Shown: positions 3,002 to 48,646 of the stretch, in pieces
Numbering within the stretch: position 1 is the first letter of the stretch
How the letters are laid out: every line of letters begins with the position of its first letter
Assembly (NCBI GenBank): GCA_039831155.1
Contig: JBDONT010000010.1
Span: 1-48,646 of the forward strand
DNA from: Nautiliaceae bacterium
GTDB lineage: Bacteria; Campylobacterota; Campylobacteria; Campylobacterales; Nautiliaceae
Reading direction: 5' to 3'
Length of the DNA: 48,646 nucleotides
Translations under genes and position numbers: made by a program
Notes under the pieces: generated by a model
Seen by the model: the letters and a program-made list of their open reading frames with translations, nothing else
Told to the model about the DNA's origin: nothing
Database searches by the model: none

Positions 3002-4033
3002 ATGAGCGTGCAAAAAACAATTGTTTCGTTTTTTTTAATCAGCTTCATTTTTATGTCTCCTTCAAATGCGGGGGAGTTGGATAACATTGACATATCACTT
3101 GATTTGGGTGACGTTGACAAACCTTACAGTTACAAGGGGTATTTCAAGCTGGAATTTTATTACATTGACGATAAGGAAAAATATACGATAATTAAAGGCG
3201 AGCTGAATTTTGAGGGTGATTACAAAAAGGATAAGTGGTATTTTAAAGGAAACTGGAGCGGATATTACACGCACGACAAATACGACACTTCAAAATACGG
3301 CATAGTTAATGAACTGTATGTAAAATACGGAGACGTAAACAAAAATATAACTGTCGGTAAAGAACTTTTAAAATGGGGAAAAGGGTATGCGTATTCAGCG
3401 GTTAGTTTCTTTACTCGTGCGAAAAACCCTCTATATCCCGAAGATTTGAAACAGGGGTATGAATTAGTGCATTTTAAAACGATAGATACGCTGAATTTGA
3501 CGATAAAAAACTATTCGCTGGATTTCATATATATGCCTTCAAACAATTCAATAAACTCAGACTTGCAAAAATCCCAAAACTGGGGAGCTAAACTCTATAT
3601 GCTTTACGAAAACACCGATATAGATTTTATGTTTGAAAAAAGCAACTTCTATCCCGACAAATACGGGGCGGATTTTTCGTTTAACATTTTAACCGAACTT
3701 GAAGTGCACGGGGAGTATGCGTTTGACGAAGATGGAAAAAATTCTTATCTTTTGGGGTGTAAATACGCAAGCAAGTATGATTTTACCCTCACGGGCGAAT
3801 GGTACAAAGACTGGAATGAAAATAAATTTATTTACGCCAAAATATCTCAAAAAGATTTTTATATCGATTATCTGACGGCTTATGTTACGGGTATTAGAAA
3901 TTATACGCAAAATGTAAATTCACTGCTTTTAGGACTCAGTTACGATTTCAAAAACAATTTCGTGCTTACTTCCGAATATCTGACATCTACAAAACAAAAT
4001 CAGGCAAAACTCTCACTTATTTATTACTTCTGA
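3002..4033 (+). CDS. Putative outer-membrane beta-barrel protein
   Basis: Signal peptide, aromatic-rich alternating pattern, NELYV / VGKELLKWG, terminal aromatic YYF. Confidence 0.7.
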   Translation: MSVQKTIVSFFLISFIFMSPSNAGELDNIDISLDLGDVDKPYSYKGYFKLEFYYIDDKEKYTIIKGELNFEGDYKKDKWYFKGNWSGYYTHDKYDTSKYGIVNELYVKYGDVNKNITVGKELLKWGKGYAYSAVSFFTRAKNPLYPEDLKQGYELVHFKTIDTLNLTIKNYSLDFIYMPSNNSINSDLQKSQNWGAKLYMLYENTDIDFMFEKSNFYPDKYGADFSFNILTELEVHGEYAFDEDGKNSYLLGCKYASKYDFTLTGEWYKDWNENKFIYAKISQKDFYIDYLTAYVTGIRNYTQNVNSLLLGLSYDFKNNFVLTSEYLTSTKQNQAKLSLIYYF

Positions 4034-6037
<2,004 letters not shown>

Positions 6038-6086
6038 TTTTTAAATGTTATAAAATTTTGTTATAATAAATAAAAAAAGGCTTTAA

Positions 6087-6295
6087 ATACAAGCTGTATT
6101 TGATATGCGAGTAGAAGAGTTTGATGATAAGTTTTTTGAAATGTTAAAAACTAAATTTAAAAACGCTAAAATCAAAATTATTATTAAAGAAGATGAAACC
6201 GAGTATCTATTAAAAAATAAAGCGAATAGAGAATTTTTAATGAAATCTATAGCTGGACTTAAAAAAATGAAATTGTGAAGTTAAAAGATATTTGA
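6087..6295 (+). pseudogene. YefM-like antitoxin, degenerate
   Basis: Manual translation: (I)QAVFDMRVEEFDDKFFEMLKTKFKNAKIKIIIKEDETEYLLKNKANREFLMKSI, with a DETEYLL..ANR motif. ATA sits at the expected start. A probable frameshift lies in the A run at 6261-6267, and the alternative frame ends at TGA 6293-6295 overlapping the toxin ATG. Confidence 0.75.
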
Positions 6296-6546
6296 TGATA
6301 GTTTTTACCAAATCGTGTTTTGAAGATTATTTTTAGTGGGAACAGAATGATAAAGGAATCTTTAAAAAGATAAACGCTTTGATTAAAGAATGTCTTAGAA
6401 ATCCTTTTTCGGGACGTGGGAAACCCGAACCTTTAAAAAACGAGCTTTCAGGATTTTGGTCAAGGCGTATAGATAGTGAACATAGATTGGTTTATAAATA
6501 CGAAAATGAAAAATTATATATAATTTCTGTGAGATACTATGTATAA
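6295..6546 (+). pseudogene. yoeB: Txe/YoeB-family toxin with premature stop
   Basis: MIVFTKSCFEDYF*WEQNDK...PFSGRGKPEPLKNELSGFWSRRIDSEHRLVY...RYYV. In-frame TAG at 6334-6336. Confidence 0.92.
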
Positions 6547-6558
6547 AAAAGGATAAAA

Positions 6559-6852
6559 ATGCCGACTAAAACGGTTGTGGAAAATGATGTAGAGATAATA
6601 ATGCCTAAACTTTATAAAGTGATGCTTTTGAATGATGATTATACGACGTTTGATTTCGTAATAGAGATTTTAAAAAAAGTTTTTCATAAAAGCGAGGAGG
6701 AGGCTATTAATCTCACTTTAAAAGTGGATAGAGAAGGGAGTGCGATTGTCGGGGTTTACCCTTACGAAATAGCTCAAATGAAAGTGGAAAGAACCCACGC
6801 ACTTGCACGTGAAGCCGGATATCCATTAAGAGCAGTATTAGAGGAGGAATAA
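6559..6852 (+). CDS. clpS: ATP-dependent Clp protease adaptor
   Basis: YKVMLLNDDYTTFDFV motif, directly upstream of clpA. Confidence 0.96.
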   Translation: MPTKTVVENDVEIIMPKLYKVMLLNDDYTTFDFVIEILKKVFHKSEEEAINLTLKVDREGSAIVGVYPYEIAQMKVERTHALAREAGYPLRAVLEEE

Positions 6853-9015
6853 GTGGAGATAACTAGGAATTTAAGGAATATTTTAAACGAAATTGTAAAT
6901 GAAGCGAAAAGAAGACAAAACGAATATATTACCGTCGACCACGCTTTTTATGTGTTGTTAAAAGATGAAAATATTAAAAAAATTTTAGAAGATGTCGGGG
7001 TTGATGTGGATTATATAAGAATGGGGCTTGATTATTATCTTGACAGATATATAGAAAAAGTGCCCGTTAAAGTAACTCCGACAGAAACTCTTGCTTTTCA
7101 TAAAGCAACGGAGAGAATGATAAACCATATTCAAGGAATTCGTAAAAACGTAGCAGATGAGATAGACTTTTTTATAGCTCTTTTAGAAGATGAGACGAGT
7201 TATACTCATCAGCTTTTAAGAGAGTTTGGAATTCACAGGGTAGAAATAGTTGAGTATATTACGGAAAGTGAAGTTGAAACGAAAGAGAATAAAAAAGAGT
7301 CTCCTTTAAAAGAATTTACAACCGAGCTTACCTCTATTGCAAAAAAATTTGACGACGTAATAGGCAGGGAAAAAGAGATAGAAAGAGTTATGCATGTTCT
7401 TGCAAGACGTAAAAAAAACAATCCTATCTTAGTAGGAGAACCGGGAGTTGGGAAAACGGCTATTGTTGAAGGACTTGCGAAAAAAATAGCTTTAAATGAA
7501 GTTCCAAAAGCCTTAAAAAACAAAAAAATATACTCTTTGGATTTGGGAGCTTTAATAGCCGGTACAAAATACAGAGGCGAATTTGAAAAAAGAATGAAAC
7601 TTATTTTGGATGAACTTAAAAAAGAAAAAGAGCCTATTTTGTTTATTGATGAAATTCATATGATTGTAGGAGCCGGGGTTGCCGGGAATGGGAGTATGGA
7701 TGTGGCGAATCTGCTAAAACCAGCACTTGCCAGGGGTGAGATTAGATGTATAGGTGCTACGACTTATGAAGAGTATAAAAACCATTTTGAAAAAGATAGA
7801 GCCTTAAACAGAAGATTTCAAAAAATAGATATAAAAGAACCAAGCATTGAAGATACTGTTAAGATTTTAAAAGGATTAAAATCTAAATACGAAGAGTTTC
7901 ACGGTGTGAGATATTCCGAAGAGGCTATTAAAAATGCGGCTGTTTTGGCTAAAAAGTATCTTAGAGAGAAATTTTTACCCGATAGTGCGATTGATTTGAT
8001 AGATGAAGCCGGAGCTAAATTTAAACTAAAAGGTAAAAAGCTGATAACAAAAAGCGATATAGAAGGAGTTGTTGCAAAACTTGCGAATATTCCTAAAGAA
8101 AGCACTTCGAATAACGAAATAGAAAAATTAAGACATCTTGAAAATAATTTAAAAGCTAGGGTTTTTGGACAGGATGAAGCTATAAAAGAGCTTGTAAAAG
8201 TGATAAAAAGAAAAAAAGCAGGACTAACTCGTGAAGATAAGCCTATAGGAAGTTTTCTTTTTGTAGGACCTACGGGTGTGGGTAAAACTGAAATTGCAAA
8301 ACAGCTTGCAGATATATTGGGGATTAACTTTTTAAGATTCGATATGAGCGAATATCAGGAAAAACATTCTGTCGCAAAACTTATAGGCTCGCCTCCCGGG
8401 TATATAGGATATGAAAAAGGAGGGCTTTTAACGGAAGCCATAAGAAAAAATCCTCATACCGTGCTTTTACTTGATGAAATAGAAAAAGCACATCCGGATA
8501 TCGTTCAAATTTTACTTCAGGTTATGGATAATGCGACGTTGACCGATAATGACGGAAGAATAGCTGATTTTAGAAATGTAGTATTGATTATGACAAGTAA
8601 TTTAGGAGTAGGAGAAGGTAATAATCCGGGATTTTTGCAAGAATTTAGCGAATTTAAAGAAGAGGCGATTGATAGGTTTTTCGCACCGGAATTTTTAAAT
8701 AGGCTTGATGCGATTGTGAGGTTTAAACCTTTAAGTCGCGAGAGTGTAATGCTTGTAGTTGATAAGTTTATAAACGAATTGCAGGATAAGTTGAATTCAA
8801 AAAAAGTTAAATTAACGCTAACTAAAAGAGCGAAAGAGGCTTTGGCTAAAAAAGGGTATTCTCCAAAACTAGGAGCCCGTCCACTTGCTAGAGTGATCGA
8901 AGAGAATATTGTTGAGCCTTTGAGTGATGAAATACTTTTTGGGGATTTGAAAGGGGGAGGAGAAGTGAGAGTCGATTATGTAAAAGATAAATTCAATCTA
9001 AAAGTAAAAAAATGA
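6853..9015 (+). CDS. clpA: Clp protease ATP-binding subunit ClpA
   Basis: Two AAA+ modules (GEPGVGKT, GPTGVGKT), no ClpB middle coiled coil, clpS-clpA-aat context. Confidence 0.93.
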   Translation: MEITRNLRNILNEIVNEAKRRQNEYITVDHAFYVLLKDENIKKILEDVGVDVDYIRMGLDYYLDRYIEKVPVKVTPTETLAFHKATERMINHIQGIRKNVADEIDFFIALLEDETSYTHQLLREFGIHRVEIVEYITESEVETKENKKESPLKEFTTELTSIAKKFDDVIGREKEIERVMHVLARRKKNNPILVGEPGVGKTAIVEGLAKKIALNEVPKALKNKKIYSLDLGALIAGTKYRGEFEKRMKLILDELKKEKEPILFIDEIHMIVGAGVAGNGSMDVANLLKPALARGEIRCIGATTYEEYKNHFEKDRALNRRFQKIDIKEPSIEDTVKILKGLKSKYEEFHGVRYSEEAIKNAAVLAKKYLREKFLPDSAIDLIDEAGAKFKLKGKKLITKSDIEGVVAKLANIPKESTSNNEIEKLRHLENNLKARVFGQDEAIKELVKVIKRKKAGLTREDKPIGSFLFVGPTGVGKTEIAKQLADILGINFLRFDMSEYQEKHSVAKLIGSPPGYIGYEKGGLLTEAIRKNPHTVLLLDEIEKAHPDIVQILLQVMDNATLTDNDGRIADFRNVVLIMTSNLGVGEGNNPGFLQEFSEFKEEAIDRFFAPEFLNRLDAIVRFKPLSRESVMLVVDKFINELQDKLNSKKVKLTLTKRAKEALAKKGYSPKLGARPLARVIEENIVEPLSDEILFGDLKGGGEVRVDYVKDKFNLKVKK

Positions 9016-42080: not shown

Positions 42081-43052
42081 TTACATTTCTTTTAATATAG
42101 CTTCTAAATCTTTTTTAAATTCATTTTTTAATTCTTCAGATTCTAATATTATTATATTAGGTATCCATTTTTTTATAAAAGGCAGAATTTCCATAGGTTG
42201 GGTGTAGGTCAGTTCAAAAATAACTCCTTCGTCGTTTTCTTCGATAAATTTTTGGGATGAGAGGAATTTTTTCATATCTTTTCTAAAATAATGAGCCACT
42301 TCTTTTTTTGCAAGCAATCTTGCTTTTTTAGGCTCCACTCCGTATAGAGTTAGTGAATTTTGTATATTTTGCAGGTATTTTTCATATTTTTCGACTGAAT
42401 TTTTTTGAAATTTTTTTTCTTTAAGTTTACCGTTTTCTTTGATGAAAACAGGCTTGACGTCTTTTATAAAAGATATTCTTAAAAATCTGAATTTTTCGTT
42501 TTCATCTTCACACGCAAGATACCAGTTGTTATCGATAAATACCAATTTTATAGCTTTTACTGTCAGCGTTTCTTCATCTTTGATTATTTTCAGGTATTTG
42601 TGTTCTTTTACGGCATTTTTTATTTTGGAAAAAAGTTTTTCTTTTGTTTTCAAATCCTCCATAATAGAGTTTTTGAAAATAAAGATGTTTTTTTCTGATT
42701 TAATGAGTTTTTTGGCTTTTTTTCTTGTTTCATCTTCAAGGTTTTTTAAATATTCCGGGTTTGTTTGGGATAAATCTTGTAAAATAAAACTTATATCATC
42801 GCTTTTTGTCAGAATTTCGAATATTATATCGGCGGTATCGTTTATTTTGTAGCATGTTTTTTTGTTTTTGAAATCTTTTTGTATGACATCTTCGCCAAAA
42901 TATTCTGCAAGTCCGTCGAGAATATCCTTAACTCTTCTTTCTACCTGGTCGAGATTTAAAATCTCTTTGATTTCCAAAGGGGTAAAACACTGTTTTGCAG
43001 ACATTAGCAGTTTCAAAACATCAAAAGCCTCTTTTGCTTTTTTATGAATCAT
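42081..43052 (-). CDS. wHTH-WYL-WCX transcriptional regulator
   Basis: N-terminal HTH, KLVFIDNNWYLAC...FRFLRISFI WYL domain, C-terminal IKKWIPNIIILES. Confidence 0.92.
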   Translation of the reverse strand: MIHKKAKEAFDVLKLLMSAKQCFTPLEIKEILNLDQVERRVKDILDGLAEYFGEDVIQKDFKNKKTCYKINDTADIIFEILTKSDDISFILQDLSQTNPEYLKNLEDETRKKAKKLIKSEKNIFIFKNSIMEDLKTKEKLFSKIKNAVKEHKYLKIIKDEETLTVKAIKLVFIDNNWYLACEDENEKFRFLRISFIKDVKPVFIKENGKLKEKKFQKNSVEKYEKYLQNIQNSLTLYGVEPKKARLLAKKEVAHYFRKDMKKFLSSQKFIEENDEGVIFELTYTQPMEILPFIKKWIPNIIILESEELKNEFKKDLEAILKEM

Positions 43053-43077
43053 ATTAATTCCTTAAATAAATTTATTT

Positions 43078-43109
43078 TGCCATTTTTTGTCATCATAAAT
43101 GATTACAAT
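43078..43109 (+). promoter_or_regulatory. Promoter with palindromic operator (copy 2)
   Basis: TGCCATTTTTTGTCA-11 nt-TACAAT, upstream of darT. Confidence 0.75.
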
Positions 43110-43133
43110 TTTATCATAAATTATTGAGAAAGG

Positions 43134-43661
43134 ATGGTCATGGGAAAAATTACTGAATTATTTGTAAAAGAACATTTAGAAAAAAACGGTATCAAAAGTT
43201 TATGGCATTTTACAGATCTCTCAAATTGGGAATCAATTAAAAAATATGGGATTCAGTCATTATTTAGAATAATCAAAGATGATATTAAGGTTTCTCGTTT
43301 CGGTGCAAATGCTTTATCTCATGATTTGGATTATTATAAAGGATTAGACAGATATGTTCATTTGAGTTTTACAGATGACCATCCTATGTATCATATTGCA
43401 AAAAAGGAAAAAAGAATAATAAATCCGATTTGGATAGAAATTGATATAAATGTTTTATTTGATAAAAAAGTATTGGTTTGTAAAGGTGTCGCAAACAAAA
43501 CAAACAGTGTTTTATTAAATTTAGCCGGTGTGTTGAACTTTGATTTTGATAAAATGTTTCATGATGATTTTGAAATAAGAAAAGAAGCAAGAAAAGCGGA
43601 AATACTTATATACGATTGTATTGAGACTAAATATATAAAAGGAGCTTATTATGGCAAGTAG
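43134..43661 (+). CDS. darT: DarT-family (DUF4433) DNA ADP-ribosyltransferase toxin, likely DarT1
   Basis: LWHFTDLSNWESIKKYGI, YVHLSF...HPMY, catalytic-type AEIL..D.I, overlaps the NADAR-type gene. Confidence 0.85.
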   Translation: MVMGKITELFVKEHLEKNGIKSLWHFTDLSNWESIKKYGIQSLFRIIKDDIKVSRFGANALSHDLDYYKGLDRYVHLSFTDDHPMYHIAKKEKRIINPIWIEIDINVLFDKKVLVCKGVANKTNSVLLNLAGVLNFDFDKMFHDDFEIRKEARKAEILIYDCIETKYIKGAYYGK

Positions 43662-44325
43662 ACCGGCATTTATAGCAACTAAAAATGATAAACTTGTAGA
43701 AATTATAAATGTGGAATTTGAATATTTTACCGGATTTGCCGCTGTTCAAAAAGCAAAAACGAGAGATTCTTTTCATAATGCCATCAGAGAACATGGATAT
43801 GAAAAAATACTTGAAGTTTCTACTAATTCCGATAACGAATTAGGCTGGCAATTAAGCGCTTTTAATTTAATGACGGATTATGATGGAGAGAAAATTCCGC
43901 TTGAATGTGCTTTTCAGGGCAGTAAGGTATTTGAATACGGAGGGCCATATACGGATATATTCAAAAAAACAAACATAGAAGCCAAAAAAGACAAAAGACT
44001 CAAAAATTCCGGTAAAGTTATTAAATTTAGATATGAAGGAAACGAGTGGGAAACCGAACCTCAGACCGCATTTTACGACTGGTTGTATATTTCAACGGTA
44101 TATAAAAATTACCCGCACTTGATAGAAGAACTTGCAAATTATGAAGTTTTTACCGATATAGCCTTTAATCCGAAAAAATCAGTCAACTGCCAGGCAAAGA
44201 GCTGTGCTATTTTGGTATCATTGTATCATATAGGCAAACTTGAAGAGGCTTTGTCTTCAAAAGATAATTTTTTGAGAATTGTTTATGGATATAAAGAAAA
44301 ACCAAAACAGGGGAGTTTGTTTTAA
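43651..44325 (+). CDS. DarT1-associated NADAR-type antitoxin (ADP-ribosylhydrolase)
   Basis: MASRP, GFA..QK, LEVST.S, LSAFNL, ECAFQGSKVFE.GGPY.D, FYDWLY, FTDIAFNP..S.NCQA. Confidence 0.82.
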   Translation: MASRPAFIATKNDKLVEIINVEFEYFTGFAAVQKAKTRDSFHNAIREHGYEKILEVSTNSDNELGWQLSAFNLMTDYDGEKIPLECAFQGSKVFEYGGPYTDIFKKTNIEAKKDKRLKNSGKVIKFRYEGNEWETEPQTAFYDWLYISTVYKNYPHLIEELANYEVFTDIAFNPKKSVNCQAKSCAILVSLYHIGKLEEALSSKDNFLRIVYGYKEKPKQGSLF

Positions 44326-44338
44326 AATTCATATAAAT

Positions 44339-44370
44339 TGACATTTTTTGTCCTTGGTAACTAATATAAT
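44339..44370 (+). promoter_or_regulatory. Promoter with palindromic operator (copy 3)
   Basis: TGACATTTTTTGTCC-11 nt-TATAAT, upstream of ATG 44401. Confidence 0.75.
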
Positions 44371-44400
44371 TTTAATATAACAACTTCCAAAGGAGGTCTT

Positions 44401-44739
44401 ATGGGATATTGGTTTGGAGAATTTAGCAATTGCACTTCTTGGAGAAAAACACCTGTTAAGATTGGCAATACCTGGTATACTCCAAGCGGAGAGAGGATAA
44501 GAAATCCTAAAGCTTATTTTACCAAAGTTAGAAGAAACGGCAGATATTGGGAAAATAATACGGGCTGGAAAAAATCCAATAAATTCTGTGAGCGTGAATA
44601 TGATGATTTTGATTATAATTTTGAAAACTATGATAATGAAGATTATGATTACAATGATAATTCATACGAAGAAGAACGCTGGGATTTGCGTGATATTTAC
44701 GGGGATTTTTATGATGATGAGTTTGATGATTATGAGTAA
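44401..44739 (+). CDS. Hypothetical protein with basic/Trp-rich N-half and D/E/Y-rich C-half
   Basis: AAGGAGGT RBS, its own promoter, 112 aa. Confidence 0.75.
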   Translation: MGYWFGEFSNCTSWRKTPVKIGNTWYTPSGERIRNPKAYFTKVRRNGRYWENNTGWKKSNKFCEREYDDFDYNFENYDNEDYDYNDNSYEEERWDLRDIYGDFYDDEFDDYE

Positions 44740-44794
44740 TACTAAATATGCTGTTTTTAATATTGTGAAAAAAGGAAAAATTTTTATAGATGTT

Positions 44795-44803
44795 TGATAT
44801 AAT
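44795..44803 (+). promoter_or_regulatory. Extended -10 promoter for the retron transcript
   Basis: TGATATAAT (TGn-TATAAT) ends 7 nt before the 5' inverted repeat. Confidence 0.7.
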
Positions 44804-44809
44804 TATATA

Positions 44810-44953
44810 AGCCTAGATATTGATGTCTGTGCTGTAATCGGCACAGGTCTATAAAAGTTAACACTTGTCTTCGCAATTTTAAAAGTGAAAGTAAAAAGTG
44901 AAATAGAGTAAGTAAATCTATCATTGCTTCGAATCCTAATGAATATCTAGGCT
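44810..44953 (+). ncRNA. Retron msr-msd non-coding RNA
   Basis: Perfect 12-bp terminal inverted repeats AGCCTAGATATT (44810-21) / AATATCTAGGCT (44942-53). Candidate branching G at 44822 after TT. Hairpin GTCTGTGCTG-taat-CGGCACAGGT. Ends 18 nt before the first copy of the RT GTG. Confidence 0.85.
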
Positions 44954-45014
44954 GTTTGAAAAAGGGAATAAGTGGAAAAGTTATTTAAATATATAAATCT
45001 TTATATTATAAAAA

Positions 45015-45114
45015 NNNNNNNNNNNNNNNNNNNNNNNNNNNNNNNNNNNNNNNNNNNNNNNNNNNNNNNNNNNNNNNNNNNNNNNNNNNNNNNNNNNNNN
45101 NNNNNNNNNNNNNN
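45015..45114. other. Assembly gap (100 N) flanked by a 127-bp exact duplication
   Basis: 44888-45014 is identical to 45115-45241. Confidence 0.95.
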
Positions 45115-45198
45115 AAAGTAAAAAGTGAAATAGAGTAAGTAAATCTATCATTGCTTCGAATCCTAATGAATATCTAGGCTGTTTGAAAAAGGGAATAA

Positions 45199-47064
45199 GT
45201 GGAAAAGTTATTTAAATATATAAATCTTTATATTATAAAAAATGCAAAAAATAAAAAGATAAAGCCTCTAACTAATATAAATAAATTGTATTATTTCGCA
45301 TATTTTTGCGATGATAAATTTATAACATTTGAAATTCCTAAATATAACGATAAAAAAAGAACAATATATACCACTAAATATAAAACTCATAAAATTATCT
45401 TAGAAGCTATAAATGAATATTTATATGAGAAAGTGAAACTTCCAAGATATGTTCACGGATATGTGAAAAAGAAAAATGTAGTTACAAACGCCAAAGTTCA
45501 CGTAGGTAAAAAATATGTTTTTAAAGTTGATATTAAAGATTTTTTTCCTTCAATTCACAAAGGTAAAATAATTTGGGCATTAAAAAATTATCTTAATTTA
45601 GATGAAAAACAGGCTTTTTTAATTGCTTCATTGGCTACTGTTAAAATTGATGGTAAAGAATTTTTACCTCAAGGCTTTCCAACTTCCCCAGTGTTATCTA
45701 ATCTGGTTTTAAAAAGAGTTGATAGAAGATTAATTGGGATAGCAAAAAAATATCATATAAAATATACAAGATATGCAGATGATATTACTTTTTCAAGTGA
45801 TAAAAATATTTTTGATGAAAATTTTATAAATGAGGTAGAAAAAATTTTAAATAAAGACGGTTTTAAACTGAATTATGAGAAAATAAAATTATTAAAAAAG
45901 GGCTACAGACAAACGGTAACCGGTTTGGTTGTAAATGAAAAACTCAATGTAAAAAGAGAATATGTTAAATTATTAAGAACACTTTTATTTTATCTTGAAA
46001 AAAATATTGAACAATATGGAAAAGGGGAAGGAATAAAAAAAGCTCAGATATTATTTGAAGAAAAAAGTAACTCAAAAAAAGATTTATTAAAAGTAATTGA
46101 AGGAAAACTTGCATATTTAAAGAATATAAAAGGAGAAGATGATTCAACATATAAAAAATTAAAAAGTAGATATGATAAGATAACCGGAAAAAATAAAACT
46201 AATTGCATTAATCATAATCCAAAAAAAGTTGTAGAAATTCTAAGTAAATTTTCAAATGATGAAGATTTAAAATTTGTTCTTCACAAATGGAGAGGAAGTG
46301 CTAATTTTACTTATGATGAATTTATAAAAAAAGTGAAAAATAAATGGAAAGAATATGAAAAAGAATTACATAAATTAAATTATAAATTAAATGCTAAAAT
46401 TTATAATTTTTTACTACATCCAAATCCTAAATGGGGAAATAATAAAGAAATAGAATATGGATGGTCATCACATAATTTAATAGAATGTTTTAGAAATATT
46501 CAAGACCCTTTTGATTGTGAATTAAATGATGGAAATGGTAGAAAATTTGAAGATATTATCAAGTTATTTAAAGAAGAAATTAGATTAAATGGAGAAAAAC
46601 TACTCAAATTAATTGATAATATAATCAAAGAAAATAATTTAAAATCAGAAAAAAAAGATTTAAAAGAAAGAGAAAAGCTCTACGAAATGAAAGAAACTTA
46701 TATAGATACTCAATGGTTTAAGATAGGTTTAGAAAGATTATTTCAAGGAATAAAAGAACATGGCAAAACTAATAAAATTGAATTACAATTTGAAGAGTTT
46801 GATGATTTTTATGAATTATATATTATTAATATAGATTCCAATGCAAATAAAAATCATAAAGAATTGATAGGAGGAGATTTTTCTTTTATTAAAGAAGCTT
46901 TTTGTTCAGTTGTAGATTGGAGTATTATTTGGAAATATAATAATCAAATTTGTAAGTTTGATGTTTTTAAAAATGAAGAAAAATTTCAAAATAATTATGA
47001 TTTTAGAGGATTTACACATAAAATAAAAATATATAAAAGAGTTATGAATGATTTTATTAGTTGA
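45199..47064 (+). CDS. Retron-type reverse transcriptase with a roughly 280-aa C-terminal histidine-kinase/GHKL-like extension
   Basis: NAKVH (region X), DIKDFFPSI, LPQGFPTSPVLSN, YADD, QTVTGLVV (region Y). The C-terminal YIDTQWF..GLERLFQGIKEHG / LYIINID / GGDF..IK / GFTHKIKI resembles HATPase_c boxes (inference). Confidence 0.9.
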   Translation: MEKLFKYINLYIIKNAKNKKIKPLTNINKLYYFAYFCDDKFITFEIPKYNDKKRTIYTTKYKTHKIILEAINEYLYEKVKLPRYVHGYVKKKNVVTNAKVHVGKKYVFKVDIKDFFPSIHKGKIIWALKNYLNLDEKQAFLIASLATVKIDGKEFLPQGFPTSPVLSNLVLKRVDRRLIGIAKKYHIKYTRYADDITFSSDKNIFDENFINEVEKILNKDGFKLNYEKIKLLKKGYRQTVTGLVVNEKLNVKREYVKLLRTLLFYLEKNIEQYGKGEGIKKAQILFEEKSNSKKDLLKVIEGKLAYLKNIKGEDDSTYKKLKSRYDKITGKNKTNCINHNPKKVVEILSKFSNDEDLKFVLHKWRGSANFTYDEFIKKVKNKWKEYEKELHKLNYKLNAKIYNFLLHPNPKWGNNKEIEYGWSSHNLIECFRNIQDPFDCELNDGNGRKFEDIIKLFKEEIRLNGEKLLKLIDNIIKENNLKSEKKDLKEREKLYEMKETYIDTQWFKIGLERLFQGIKEHGKTNKIELQFEEFDDFYELYIINIDSNANKNHKELIGGDFSFIKEAFCSVVDWSIIWKYNNQICKFDVFKNEEKFQNNYDFRGFTHKIKIYKRVMNDFIS

Positions 47065-47605
47065 AGATACTCAAGTAAGATTAAATGGAATCAACTGTTT
47101 GAAAAATATCGAAATTGTTGATTATTTTGACAAATTAAAATTTAAAAATTATGAAATTATTTGTGTTCATAAATCTATAAAAAATTTTAATGAAAAAATT
47201 TTAATGGAATTAGATAAAAAAGTTGTGATTTTTAGTGGAGGAATTGAGGGATATTATTTTAAAAATAAAAATTTTTTAGAAATTGATGTTGATATTTTTT
47301 ATCAAAATTTTTGTGTTTTTATTGAGAGTAAAGAATTATTTAGTTTAATATATGGAAAAAATTATAAATTGAAAACACTTTTAGAATTTTACGATAGAAT
47401 TTCTTTTTTTGAGAAAAATAATGAAGAGTATTTGTCTTTTAAATTTGTAAAAGAAACTCATTATGAAAAAATTATAAATGTTTTCAATTTAGAAGAAATT
47501 AAGTTAGATTTAATTATTGAAAAACAAGAACTTATAAAATATAAAAAATACATTTATCACTTAATACAAAAGATGGCAAATGAAAACTTTATTAGTAATT
47601 CCTAA
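47048..47605 (+). CDS. Receiver-like (pseudo-REC) protein
   Basis: MILLVED beta1, IICVH at the usual phosphoacceptor strand, VVIFSGG beta4. Overlaps the RT 3' end by 17 nt. Confidence 0.65.
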   Translation: MILLVEDTQVRLNGINCLKNIEIVDYFDKLKFKNYEIICVHKSIKNFNEKILMELDKKVVIFSGGIEGYYFKNKNFLEIDVDIFYQNFCVFIESKELFSLIYGKNYKLKTLLEFYDRISFFEKNNEEYLSFKFVKETHYEKIINVFNLEEIKLDLIIEKQELIKYKKYIYHLIQKMANENFISNS

Positions 47606-48646
47606 TAATAAAAAAGATTTTTATAATACAGAAAAATTTAATGACACATATTATATCAGTTTAAAATTTGAAGATAACTTTGAAAAAGAACTCCAAAAGA
47701 GAATTAAAGAATTAGATAAGAAAGAATTTGATGTTATTTTTATAAAAGAAAGTTTAGGTCCTACTTGTTTAGATTTTACAGGTATAAAACTTGCTTGGTA
47801 TATTAGATTGCTTTCTAATAAACATAAATTTAAGCCTATTATAATACTTTCTAATTTTGATGCAGTTTTAATAAAAAAAATTACTTTTTTAGGTGATATA
47901 TTATTTACTCAGGGAGTTTATTTAATAGATGAATTTATTGAGGGGAGATTTACTCCTTTAAAAGATTATAAAAACTTTATAAATTTAGTAAAAATTCCGT
48001 TACCACTCGAATATAATTCAAATCACGATTTATCTAATGATTGGGCATTATATGTTTGGGCTAAAAATTTTGATGTAAAAATGGATAAATTATTCAAAAA
48101 GTTTGAAGAAAAATTTTATTTTCAATATTTAAAAGCAAAGTATGAACTTGAAGTTAAAAAACAAAAAGTTGAATTGAAAAATCAAAATTTAAAGATATTA
48201 GCAATAGACGATAAAAAAGAGTGGGGAGAAATTTATAAAAAAGTTGAAATAGAATTTTATAATATTCAAGATTGTAAATTTAATGAAAATATAATAGAAG
48301 ATTATGATATGATAATTTTAGATTTAAGATTAAGAAAAAAGGATTATAAAAAAGAACAAAAAATTCAAAATTATTATAGTTATAAATTAGTTGAGAGGTT
48401 TTTACAAACTAATCCCGCTGTGTGGATAGTAATATTTAGCTCCTCAAAGAATGCAGAAATAATTCAAGAATTTAAAAAATTTCCAAATGTAATTGACTAT
48501 ATTAAAAAAAATCATCCAGAAGATAAAGAAAATAATATTTTAGATTCTATAAATAAATTCAATAAAGCATTTGCTTGGGTAAAAGAAAATAAATATTTAA
48601 AAGAAATTTGGCAAATAAAAAGAGAAATAGAAGATATTTTAGAACA
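47580..48646 (+). CDS. Tandem receiver-domain protein, partial (runs off the window, absent from the ORF track)
   Basis: Manual translation is open for 355 codons from ATG 47580. A degenerate REC (DVIFIK...DFTGIKLAWYIR...PIIILS) is followed by the linker NHDLSNDWAL and an intact REC (KILAIDD, DMIILDLRL, IVIFSSS, DYIKK). Confidence 0.85.
   Translation, partial: MKTLLVIPNNKKDFYNTEKFNDTYYISLKFEDNFEKELQKRIKELDKKEFDVIFIKESLGPTCLDFTGIKLAWYIRLLSNKHKFKPIIILSNFDAVLIKKITFLGDILFTQGVYLIDEFIEGRFTPLKDYKNFINLVKIPLPLEYNSNHDLSNDWALYVWAKNFDVKMDKLFKKFEEKFYFQYLKAKYELEVKKQKVELKNQNLKILAIDDKKEWGEIYKKVEIEFYNIQDCKFNENIIEDYDMIILDLRLRKKDYKKEQKIQNYYSYKLVERFLQTNPAVWIVIFSSSKNAEIIQEFKKFPNVIDYIKKNHPEDKENNILDSINKFNKAFAWVKENKYLKEIWQIKREIEDILE

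Follow-up and report, generated by a model that had tools for sequence, protein, structure and literature searches.

A probable retron noncoding RNA upstream of a reverse transcriptase–HisKin-conflict fusion gene in a Nautiliaceae bacterium

What is encoded by a 144-nucleotide (nt) stretch that is bounded by a perfect inverted repeat and lies directly upstream of the sole reverse transcriptase (RT) gene of its genome? We address this question for positions 44810–44953 (+ strand) of a 48,646-nt stretch of DNA from a Nautiliaceae bacterium (assembly GCA_039831155.1, contig JBDONT010000010.1; the whole stretch is referred to below as the window), for which a first-pass annotation had proposed an unannotated retron noncoding RNA (ncRNA) with the msr-msd layout. 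That interpretation is supported by the retron-clade RT encoded downstream, by homology to a covariance model (R1), by covariation in two hairpins (H1 and H2), by a duplex between the two repeat arms (a2 and a1) and by a conserved gene order, and we consider it likely that the element is the msr-msd ncRNA gene of a clade-8, type XI-like retron. Judged from sequence comparisons, it would belong, in a divergent and shortened form, to a retron RNA family that was predicted recently, and would do so in a new host phylum; because candidate ncRNAs had already been predicted for this group (Toro 2026), the window element adds a member and not a new kind.

The first point to settle is the identity of the downstream gene. 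The open reading frame (ORF) at 45199–47064 (+ strand) encodes a 621-aa protein, in which Pfam, PADLOC and PDB comparisons reveal a retron-clade RT fused to a HisKin-conflict domain: Pfam places RVT_1 at residues 46–233 and PF22561 (HisKin-conflict) at residues 338–612 (E 1.4e-36). The RT translation contains the retron-specific NAxxH (here NAKVH) and VTG motifs and the catalytic RYADD. The best PADLOC models, which match the RT part only, are RT-Protease_XI (292 bits), RT-TIR_XII (261 bits) and RT-Toprim_I-C (227 bits); among NCBIfam models, those of retrons score 182–228 bits, all under the cut-off, and Drt3a, Drt4 and Drt2 score 61, 44 and 37 bits, respectively. The nearest solved chains by sequence belong to retrons Ec67 (4.2e-29) and Ec86 (4.4e-25). 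An AlphaFold model of the whole protein (pLDDT, the predicted local distance difference test, 89.6) was matched by Foldseek to retrons Eco2 (3.3e-19) and Eco7 (TMt 0.82), with the DRT9 and DRT2 RT structures among more distant fold matches. The model of the 287 C-terminal residues (pLDDT 91.0) matches 32 PDB chains at E <= 0.001, the best being CpxA (4.2e-5), with DesK and YycG also present; the TM-scores of these kinase-core matches are low (0.30–0.46). By sequence, the gene downstream of the element is a retron-clade RT, and the kinase core is a further fusion partner for clade 8 RTs. Such fusions are common, with 2282 proteins at E <= 1e-10 among 7999 scored candidates, the top 76 of which are all two-domain proteins. 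The RT relatives P0002 and P0003 are 70% identical; a genome scan and a single metagenome scan for close relatives yielded only a 31% match and the near-identical locus L082.

Does the element itself have the parts expected of a retron ncRNA? Sequence reading and a repeat finder both confirmed that the 5' arm a2, AGCCTAGATATT (44810–44821), and its exact reverse complement, the 3' arm a1, AATATCTAGGCT (44942–44953), constitute a perfect 12-bp inverted repeat bounding the 144 nt, the pairing extending to 15 nt at 93% past a G-G mismatch (G44822/G44941). Directly after the 5' arm stands G44822, the G of an AUAUUGA motif, which R1 aligns to the near-invariant G of TTGA and which is, on the strength of this conservation, the candidate priming (branching) nucleotide named in the first-pass annotation. 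The hairpin described there as 10 bp long at 44825–44848 is real: H1, GUCUGUGCUG-UAAU-CGGCACAGGU, has 9–10 pairs, including 2–3 G.U pairs, a UAAU loop and a conserved U.G wobble, and is supported by both the fold and R1. Next come an AU-rich, degenerate equivalent of the family hairpin H2 (44849–44885), containing an AAGT/ACTT mini-hairpin (44855–44866); AGTGAAAGT (44884–44892), the counterpart of the family motif GATGAATGT in the R1 alignment and the presumed msr/msd border; and the presumed msd, or template, an A-rich, weakly paired and strain-variable tract placed by inferred borders at 44893–44941. All of these features lie on the + strand. The whole 144 nt fold at -39.4 kcal/mol, compared with -23.35 +/- 3.15 kcal/mol for shuffled sequences (z -5.1; none of 200 shuffles as good), and the closing stem and the 44825–44848 hairpin are the dominant parts of this fold. 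The features described in the first-pass annotation are confirmed to be present at these positions.

Another important question is whether this arrangement recurs upstream of homologous RTs. Scanning one genome of each species with a profile gave 80 loci. Upstream repeats were searched for in 15 loci with a match reaching the kinase part, and a perfect 10–14-nt long-range repeat was present upstream of the RT in 10 of them, which were inspected further; the best repeat in the remaining five was 8–9 nt long, inside the gene or pure A/T. The common order of parts is a2, AGATATTGA, a hairpin UGCUG...AAUCGGCA, another hairpin, GATGAATGT, a stretch that varies between loci, CATACAnAAAGArTATC and a1. 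Since a MAFFT alignment of whole elements (A2) aligned the ends alone, the 5' domain was modelled alone (alignment A3, model R1), and the a1/a2 pairing was tested by duplex folding. A3 contains the 5' domains of 14 homologous loci, with the window excluded; RNAalifold found 15 pairs in it, 11 with compensatory changes. The covariance model R1, built from A3 and likewise not including the window, has 113 positions.

Across 87 loci (681 kb), R1 yielded 32 matches at E <= 1, of which the 25 at E < 0.01 all lie upstream of the RT and share its strand. A covariance model from regions upstream of homologous RTs had been suggested in the first-pass annotation as a way to check the element, and the top match of R1 in the 48.6-kb window, with filters off, does fall on it: 44789–44897, + strand, 19.5 bits, E 0.05, the runner-up reaching 14.5 bits. 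L082 scores 23.4 bits. R1 aligns AGAUAUUGA and H1 with its U.G wobble onto the window; in the H2 region it pairs just C44849-U44850 with A44884-G44885. Hairpins H1 and H2 covary across the family: in A4, the alignment resulting from the R1 matches, 96.5% of cells are paired versus 73.0% in shuffled alignments (0/500 shuffles; slid controls 37.5–59.1%), and 13 of 15 pairs are doubly changed. H1 shows double changes at six of its eight pairs, with 96.4% of cells paired. The AUAUUGA motif is near-invariant, TTGA is conserved at 90% or more in the 25 best R1 rows, and the inner GATATT of a2 is conserved family-wide; the a1 arm of the window is preceded by a G-A-A/G-T-A-T-C context, as in the homologues.

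The inverted repeat is conserved in homologous loci as well, as the first-pass reading presupposed. In 25/25 model-positive loci, a duplex of -19 to -36 kcal/mol joins the 32 nt that precede the conserved G to a site 220–370 nt downstream, and the sequences of the a2/a1 duplex core differ between loci. This duplex beats all 30 shuffles in 23 of the 25 loci; for the window, z is -5.7, with 0/30 shuffles as good. Rfam gave no match on the element at E <= 10 (window positions 43000–46000) and none at the gathering score in eight homologous loci. Two loci of the family showed further peculiarities. The variable region of L009 (3630–3790) contains a second, diverged copy of the H1 3' half, H2 and GATGAATGT, an internal partial msr duplication, and in L053 two weak R1 matches (3077–3179 and 3476–3604; 24.6 and 23.9 bits) lie upstream of one RT, possibly representing tandem ncRNA copies or a remnant.

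How far does this RNA extend within the phylum of the host? The RT was absent from the 29 same-family genomes examined. Among 401 genomes of the phylum, there were 18 matches at E <= 1e-20, and the sole match through the kinase part, besides that of the window's own genome, was found in G417 (41% identity, one in-frame TGA). In this locus, L117 (G417:C8:27538-29421, minus strand), the in-frame TGA may indicate a broken copy or a sequencing error. R1 matches L117 at 22.8 bits (E 0.0094); its element is 212 nt long, has a short H1 with a UAAU loop as in the window and is followed by the same genes in the same order (ncRNA, RT-HisKin, a homologue of the 185-aa ORF described below, iREC). Between the window and L117, three of the 12 a1/a2 pairs are changed on both sides, all of them remaining Watson-Crick, and one G-C pair in the H1 of the window has an A-U counterpart in L117, a compensated change. 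The family thereby has members outside Bacteroidota, namely two Campylobacterota loci whose stems are mutually compensated.

A comparison at much closer range is provided by L082, a metagenomic contig whose RT is 99% identical (99.07% over the RT region). It also clarifies the structure of the assembly, in which 100 N at 45016–45115 are flanked by an exact 127-nt duplicate (44888–45014 = 45115–45241). The interval 45016–45241, comprising the 100 N and the duplicate of 44888–45014, is an assembly artefact; the duplicate contains a second copy of a1 and of the beginning of the RT gene, and a spurious short ORF at 44972 results. L082 is contiguous through the gap site. Public sequencing runs were available as assembled contigs only (two DNA runs and two RNA-library runs, the latter from one sample of one study), and in three of the four (X1, X2 and X4), the loose end past 45014 continues into the post-duplicate sequence (ATGCAAAAAATAAAAAG...). 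The exact duplicate, together with the contiguous L082 and public contigs, indicates that the RT truly starts at GTG 44972 (= 45199); its true 5' end at 44972–45015 (+ strand), with an AAGGGA ribosome-binding site upstream, is identical to 45199–45241 and is cut by the gap. Between L082 and the window, 44810–44897 and a1 are identical, and a 30-nt insertion and several substitutions fall within 44898–44935, the variable part of L082 containing AATAGAGTAAG twice. Contigs break within 44874–44917 in 4/4 public runs, which carry indels at 44887, 44893 and 44913 as well as a tandem junction linking 44903 to the upstream position 44888; strain polymorphism in the A-rich repeat thus accounts for the 100-N scaffold gap. 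The confinement of variability to the msd suggests selection or slippage on the template itself.

Where would transcription of the element begin? An extended -10 element, TGATATAAT (TGn + TATAAT, without a -35 box), was read by eye at 44795–44803 (+ strand), and a distance of ~7 nt from it leads to a predicted start at 44810, so that the repeat begins where the first-pass annotation had placed the start. TGATATAAT is unchanged in L082, though the bases on either side differ. A sigma-70 scan did not list it because the scan requires a -35 box; the same scan found no terminator-like site. Among the 25 homologous loci, most of them Bacteroidota, 11 carry the sequence TAnnTTTG, presumably the Bacteroidota -7 promoter element, 2–7 nt upstream of model position 1, and a twelfth carries it 16 nt upstream; random 44-nt stretches give a background of 2.3%. 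Such a host-appropriate promoter element at the equivalent place in the homologues would fit a start at the 5' arm. Just upstream of TAnnTTTG, 25–40 nt before the ncRNA, a palindrome GTGCA-N7-TGCAC is found in L007, L009, L022, L034, L046 and others; kept in many Bacteroidota-type loci, it looks, as far as the sequence goes, like the operator of a regulator.

Several observations weigh against the msr-msd interpretation. The R1 match in the window is marginal at E 0.05, and the calibration of the model is rough. The alignment A4 was fitted to the model, which inflates its pair counts. The H2 region (44847–44893) folds no better than shuffles (z +0.47), and neither does the msd stem region (44893–44941; -4.7 kcal/mol, z -1.05), so that a canonical stable msd hairpin seems to be missing; the AAGT/ACTT and ATAGA/TCTAT stems described in the first-pass annotation, the latter at 44903–44921, exist and appear in local minimum-energy folds, and are not supported statistically. 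In L117, TGnTATAAT lies ~45 nt upstream of a2 and does not adjoin it. An RNA-library contig of 599 nt spans 44305–44903 without a break at 44810, giving no sign of a start there, and may include carried-over DNA. The mean depth of this contig is 48.2 and 114.6 in the two RNA runs (neighbours 11.7–12.9 and 25.9–35) and 17.7 and 30 in the DNA runs (neighbours 25–46 and 31–44), a single figure per contig that is no expression measure and from which no inference was drawn. RT-DNA is on record neither for the window element nor for other RT-HisKin retrons, and the available text of Toro 2026 (PMC13712802) leaves msDNA (multicopy single-stranded DNA) synthesis by these lineages to be determined.

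The repeat, too, is within chance expectation when taken alone. Seven perfect 12-mer inverted repeats (six distinct) with 60–300 nt spacing occur in the window, whose GC content is 31.5%, and 200 first-order Markov simulations gave 5.65 +/- 3.56, with at least one such repeat in 98.5% of them. Could the arms simply be a chance repeat in AT-rich intergenic DNA, or else a terminator or the termini of some small mobile element, with no relation to the RT? The count of seven against about 5.65 expected speaks for this, and the location directly upstream of the genome's only RT, the single-copy state of the element (the remaining matches in the genome are A-rich stretches of <=29 nt) and the lack of a terminator-like site in the scan speak against it, as do the top covariance-model match at this place, the compensation of the stem relative to L117 and the finding that L082 has an identical msr part and identical arms around a differing interior. 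We regard this explanation as highly improbable. Since the repeat alone is insignificant, the case for the msr-msd interpretation rests on its position upstream of a retron RT and on homology to a conserved RNA family.

A related question is whether the conserved RNA has to be copied into DNA at all. It could instead be a cis-acting leader or scaffold for the RT-kinase, serving in translation autoregulation or complex assembly, and make no branched msDNA. Such a role would suit the apparent lack of a stable msd hairpin in the window and L082, the end of the a1 arm only 19 nt before the RT start codon, adjoining the ribosome-binding site, and the reserve of Toro 2026 (PMC13712802), in its available text, about msDNA synthesis. 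Yet the RT retains the catalytic motif YADD together with NAxxH and VTG, two motifs specific to retrons, all in invariant columns; the near-invariant G at the end of a2 corresponds to retron priming geometry; and validated RT-DNA from clade 8, type XI ncRNAs is reported in the accessible part of Khan et al. (PMC10849725). We therefore hold a pure leader or scaffold to be improbable, and continue with the msr-msd interpretation.

If the element is an msr-msd gene, what kind of DNA would it specify? To compare the presumed msd among loci, the msr/msd border was taken at GATGAATGT or its window counterpart AGTGAAAGT; 14 of 20 loci were usable, and the six without the motif were dropped. The presumed msd is 48 nt long in the window (RNA fold -0.098 kcal/mol per nt), 78 nt in L082 (-0.088 kcal/mol per nt) and 102–194 nt in the 12 other loci (-0.127 to -0.256 kcal/mol per nt). 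With these inferred borders, that of the window is the shortest and the weakest-folding measured among the usable loci (per nt, L082 is weaker still), and the complementary DNA of 44870–44941 folds at -1.9 kcal/mol (z +0.22). The expectation of a short, T-rich and weakly paired msDNA expressed in the first-pass annotation is thus borne out comparatively, at 48 versus 102–194 nt, subject to the inferred borders. A weak stem AAGUAA/UUGCUU is common to the window and L082 and resembles one in L002. The repeat finder also detected AAAAGTGAAA as a direct repeat in two copies, to which the border sequence AGTGAAAGT belongs.

This composition raises the possibility that the A-rich tract templates something other than a classical msDNA, for instance a T-rich DNA of the DRT2/DRT9 type that is unbranched, repetitive or homopolymer-like. 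The purine-rich template does consist of short repeats (AAAAGTGAAA twice in the window, AATAGAGTAAG twice in L082), the copy number of the repeats varies between strains, and the DRT9 and DRT2 RTs appear among the more distant fold matches of the protein. Against this, the RT is far closer to retrons (182–228 bits) than to Drt3a, Drt4 or Drt2 (61, 44 and 37 bits), the layout of an a1/a2 stem with a priming G is retron-specific, and the homologues have an ordinary, mixed-sequence msd of 102–194 nt. Such a product is, in our judgment, very improbable.

The RT gene is followed by a conserved set of genes. An ORF of 185 aa at 47048–47605 (+ strand), between the RT and iREC genes, has no assigned family (no Pfam or PADLOC family match), and weak homologues of it occur at the equivalent position in L117 (E 3e-7) and L011. 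The gene at 47580–48646 (+ strand), truncated by the window end and 522 aa long in L082, encodes a protein with an iREC domain (Pfam PF22563, residues 12–116, E 2.5e-13) and a receiver-like segment; homologues of this protein lie downstream of the RT in 21 other loci, plus L117. In the L082 protein (5382–6950), the receiver-like middle part, which has DD and D motifs, reads ILAIDD ... MIILDLRL (Response_reg E 0.12, below the cut-off), and the C-terminus is helical, with RNGFVH. A HEPN reading of this C-terminus was considered from an Rx4H motif seen by eye and a weak structural match to a four-helix bundle family (TM 0.38); Pfam gave nothing, and we retain it as a lead only.

On the other side of the element, a WYL/WCX regulator (42081–43052, minus strand), DarT1 (43134–43661) and a NADAR antitoxin (43651–44325) form a defence-island context. 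They are followed, in the same island, by a 112-aa ORF (44401–44739), which is 99% conserved in L082 and has no Pfam, NCBIfam or PADLOC family. The N-terminus of its product is basic, and the tail is extremely acidic and rich in aromatic residues (D/E/Y/F); that it is DNA-mimic-like is speculation. All four were rejected as parts of the retron because none is present at homologous retron loci.

How might such a minimal system operate? Transcription would probably start from the extended -10 at 44795–44803; the 12-bp a2/a1 stem would close the RNA and bring G44822 beside the 3' end of the template, and H1 with the adjoining conserved sequence could serve as the handle recognised by the RT. The RT would then prime on the 2'-OH of G44822 and copy the A-rich ~50 nt from 44941 back to ~44893, giving a short, T/C-rich, poorly self-paired DNA joined to RNA. 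The resulting RT-RNA-DNA complex may sense phage interference, upon which the kinase module might transfer phosphate, in an ATP-dependent manner, to the receiver protein, with the C-terminal helical domain of the latter acting as the effector. We also put forward, tentatively and as a rather unlikely picture in its entirety, a minimal retron whose strain-variable, purine-rich ~50-nt template yields an unstructured T/C-rich DNA and whose fused kinase passes a phage signal to the iREC/receiver protein with a possibly HEPN-like (RNGFVH) effector, changes in repeat number tuning or evading phage triggers; if true, this would be the first retron wired to a two-component phosphorelay.

Several consequences follow for the study of this group. 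No retron group is less well understood than the type XI-like retrons, whose RNA was predicted only computationally, in 2026; with the present locus, that RNA family would have been found again, independently and purely by sequence. With its 144 nt, 12-bp closing stem and single solid hairpin, the element is a minimal form occurring in nature and indicates which parts are probably required by the RT. The conserved gene set (RT-kinase, small ORF, iREC/receiver protein) provides a testable hypothesis for retron signalling by phosphotransfer. The retron paradigm itself is unchanged unless an unusual DNA product or the phosphorelay is confirmed.

It remains to compare the locus with known systems. 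In the available text of Mestre et al. 2020 (PMC7736814), the domains given as fusion partners of clade 8 RTs are Toprim, TIR and protease, and type XI is described as being without a recognizable ncRNA; the accessible part of Khan et al. 2024 (PMC10849725) gives a repeat of >8 bp, a G for priming and hairpins close to the RT as ncRNA criteria and includes clade 8, type XI among the sources of some validated ncRNAs. Our literature search found no experimental work on RT-HisKin retrons; it did not extend to the supplements of Toro and Khan, which may hold ncRNA alignments and type XI RT-DNA data. For retrons with a histidine kinase, receiver, iREC or HisKin, Toro 2026 (mSystems, PMC13712802) alone was relevant. 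As far as its available text goes, this work defines TXI_C2like as a protease-less, monophyletic lineage whose C-terminal extension varies, found exclusively in Bacteroidota, with WYL, iREC and HisKin-conflict among its enriched neighbours, and predicts for it, by computation, in 37 loci and with experimental validation required, a three-stem-loop RNA with a1/a2-like flanking repeats, 38–388 bp upstream of the RT. The window locus resembles TXI_C2like in its protease-less clade-8 RT with a C-terminal extension and in its iREC/HisKin-conflict context; its WYL gene is four genes away from the retron and is unlinked in homologous loci, and its host belongs to Campylobacterota (Nautiliaceae-like, judged by the relatives of neighbouring housekeeping genes), whereas the lineage as described in that text is confined to Bacteroidota. 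Compared by description only, the RNA family reported here very probably overlaps that of TXI_C2like. Relative to the conserved RNA, the window element is without the outer stem GTTCTTTGAAA / TTTCAAAGAAC, has a degenerate H2 and possesses an msd of ~48 nt.

Among better-known elements, a diversity-generating retroelement was rejected, the template being single-copy in the genome and the RT of the retron clade, and a mobile element was rejected on the same single-copy grounds. Canonical type XI retrons share with the window a clade 8 RT, RT-Protease_XI being the best PADLOC model (292 bits, RT part), but the match covers profile positions 20–336 of 506, and the window has HisKin-conflict instead of a protease domain. 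Eco2/Ec67 (type I-C, clade-8 RT-Toprim) is the nearest structure by sequence (4.2e-29) and by fold (3.3e-19) and likewise combines an RT and a C-terminal effector or signalling domain in a single polypeptide; its C-terminus, however, is a Toprim nuclease and not a kinase core, and the Ec67 ncRNA comes from another family. With Ec86 (Eco1), the element shares the order of a2, priming G, msr hairpins, msd and a1, followed by an RT on the same strand. The Ec86 msd is a long, stable hairpin, whereas the presumed msd of the window is short and essentially unpaired as DNA. Finally, the locus recalls the CpxA, DesK-DesR and YycG two-component systems in the kinase-core model of the RT protein's C-terminus and in the receiver-like segment of the protein encoded downstream. 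The kinase-like part differs from them in lacking sensor and transmembrane regions, in being joined to an RT and in its low TM-scores.

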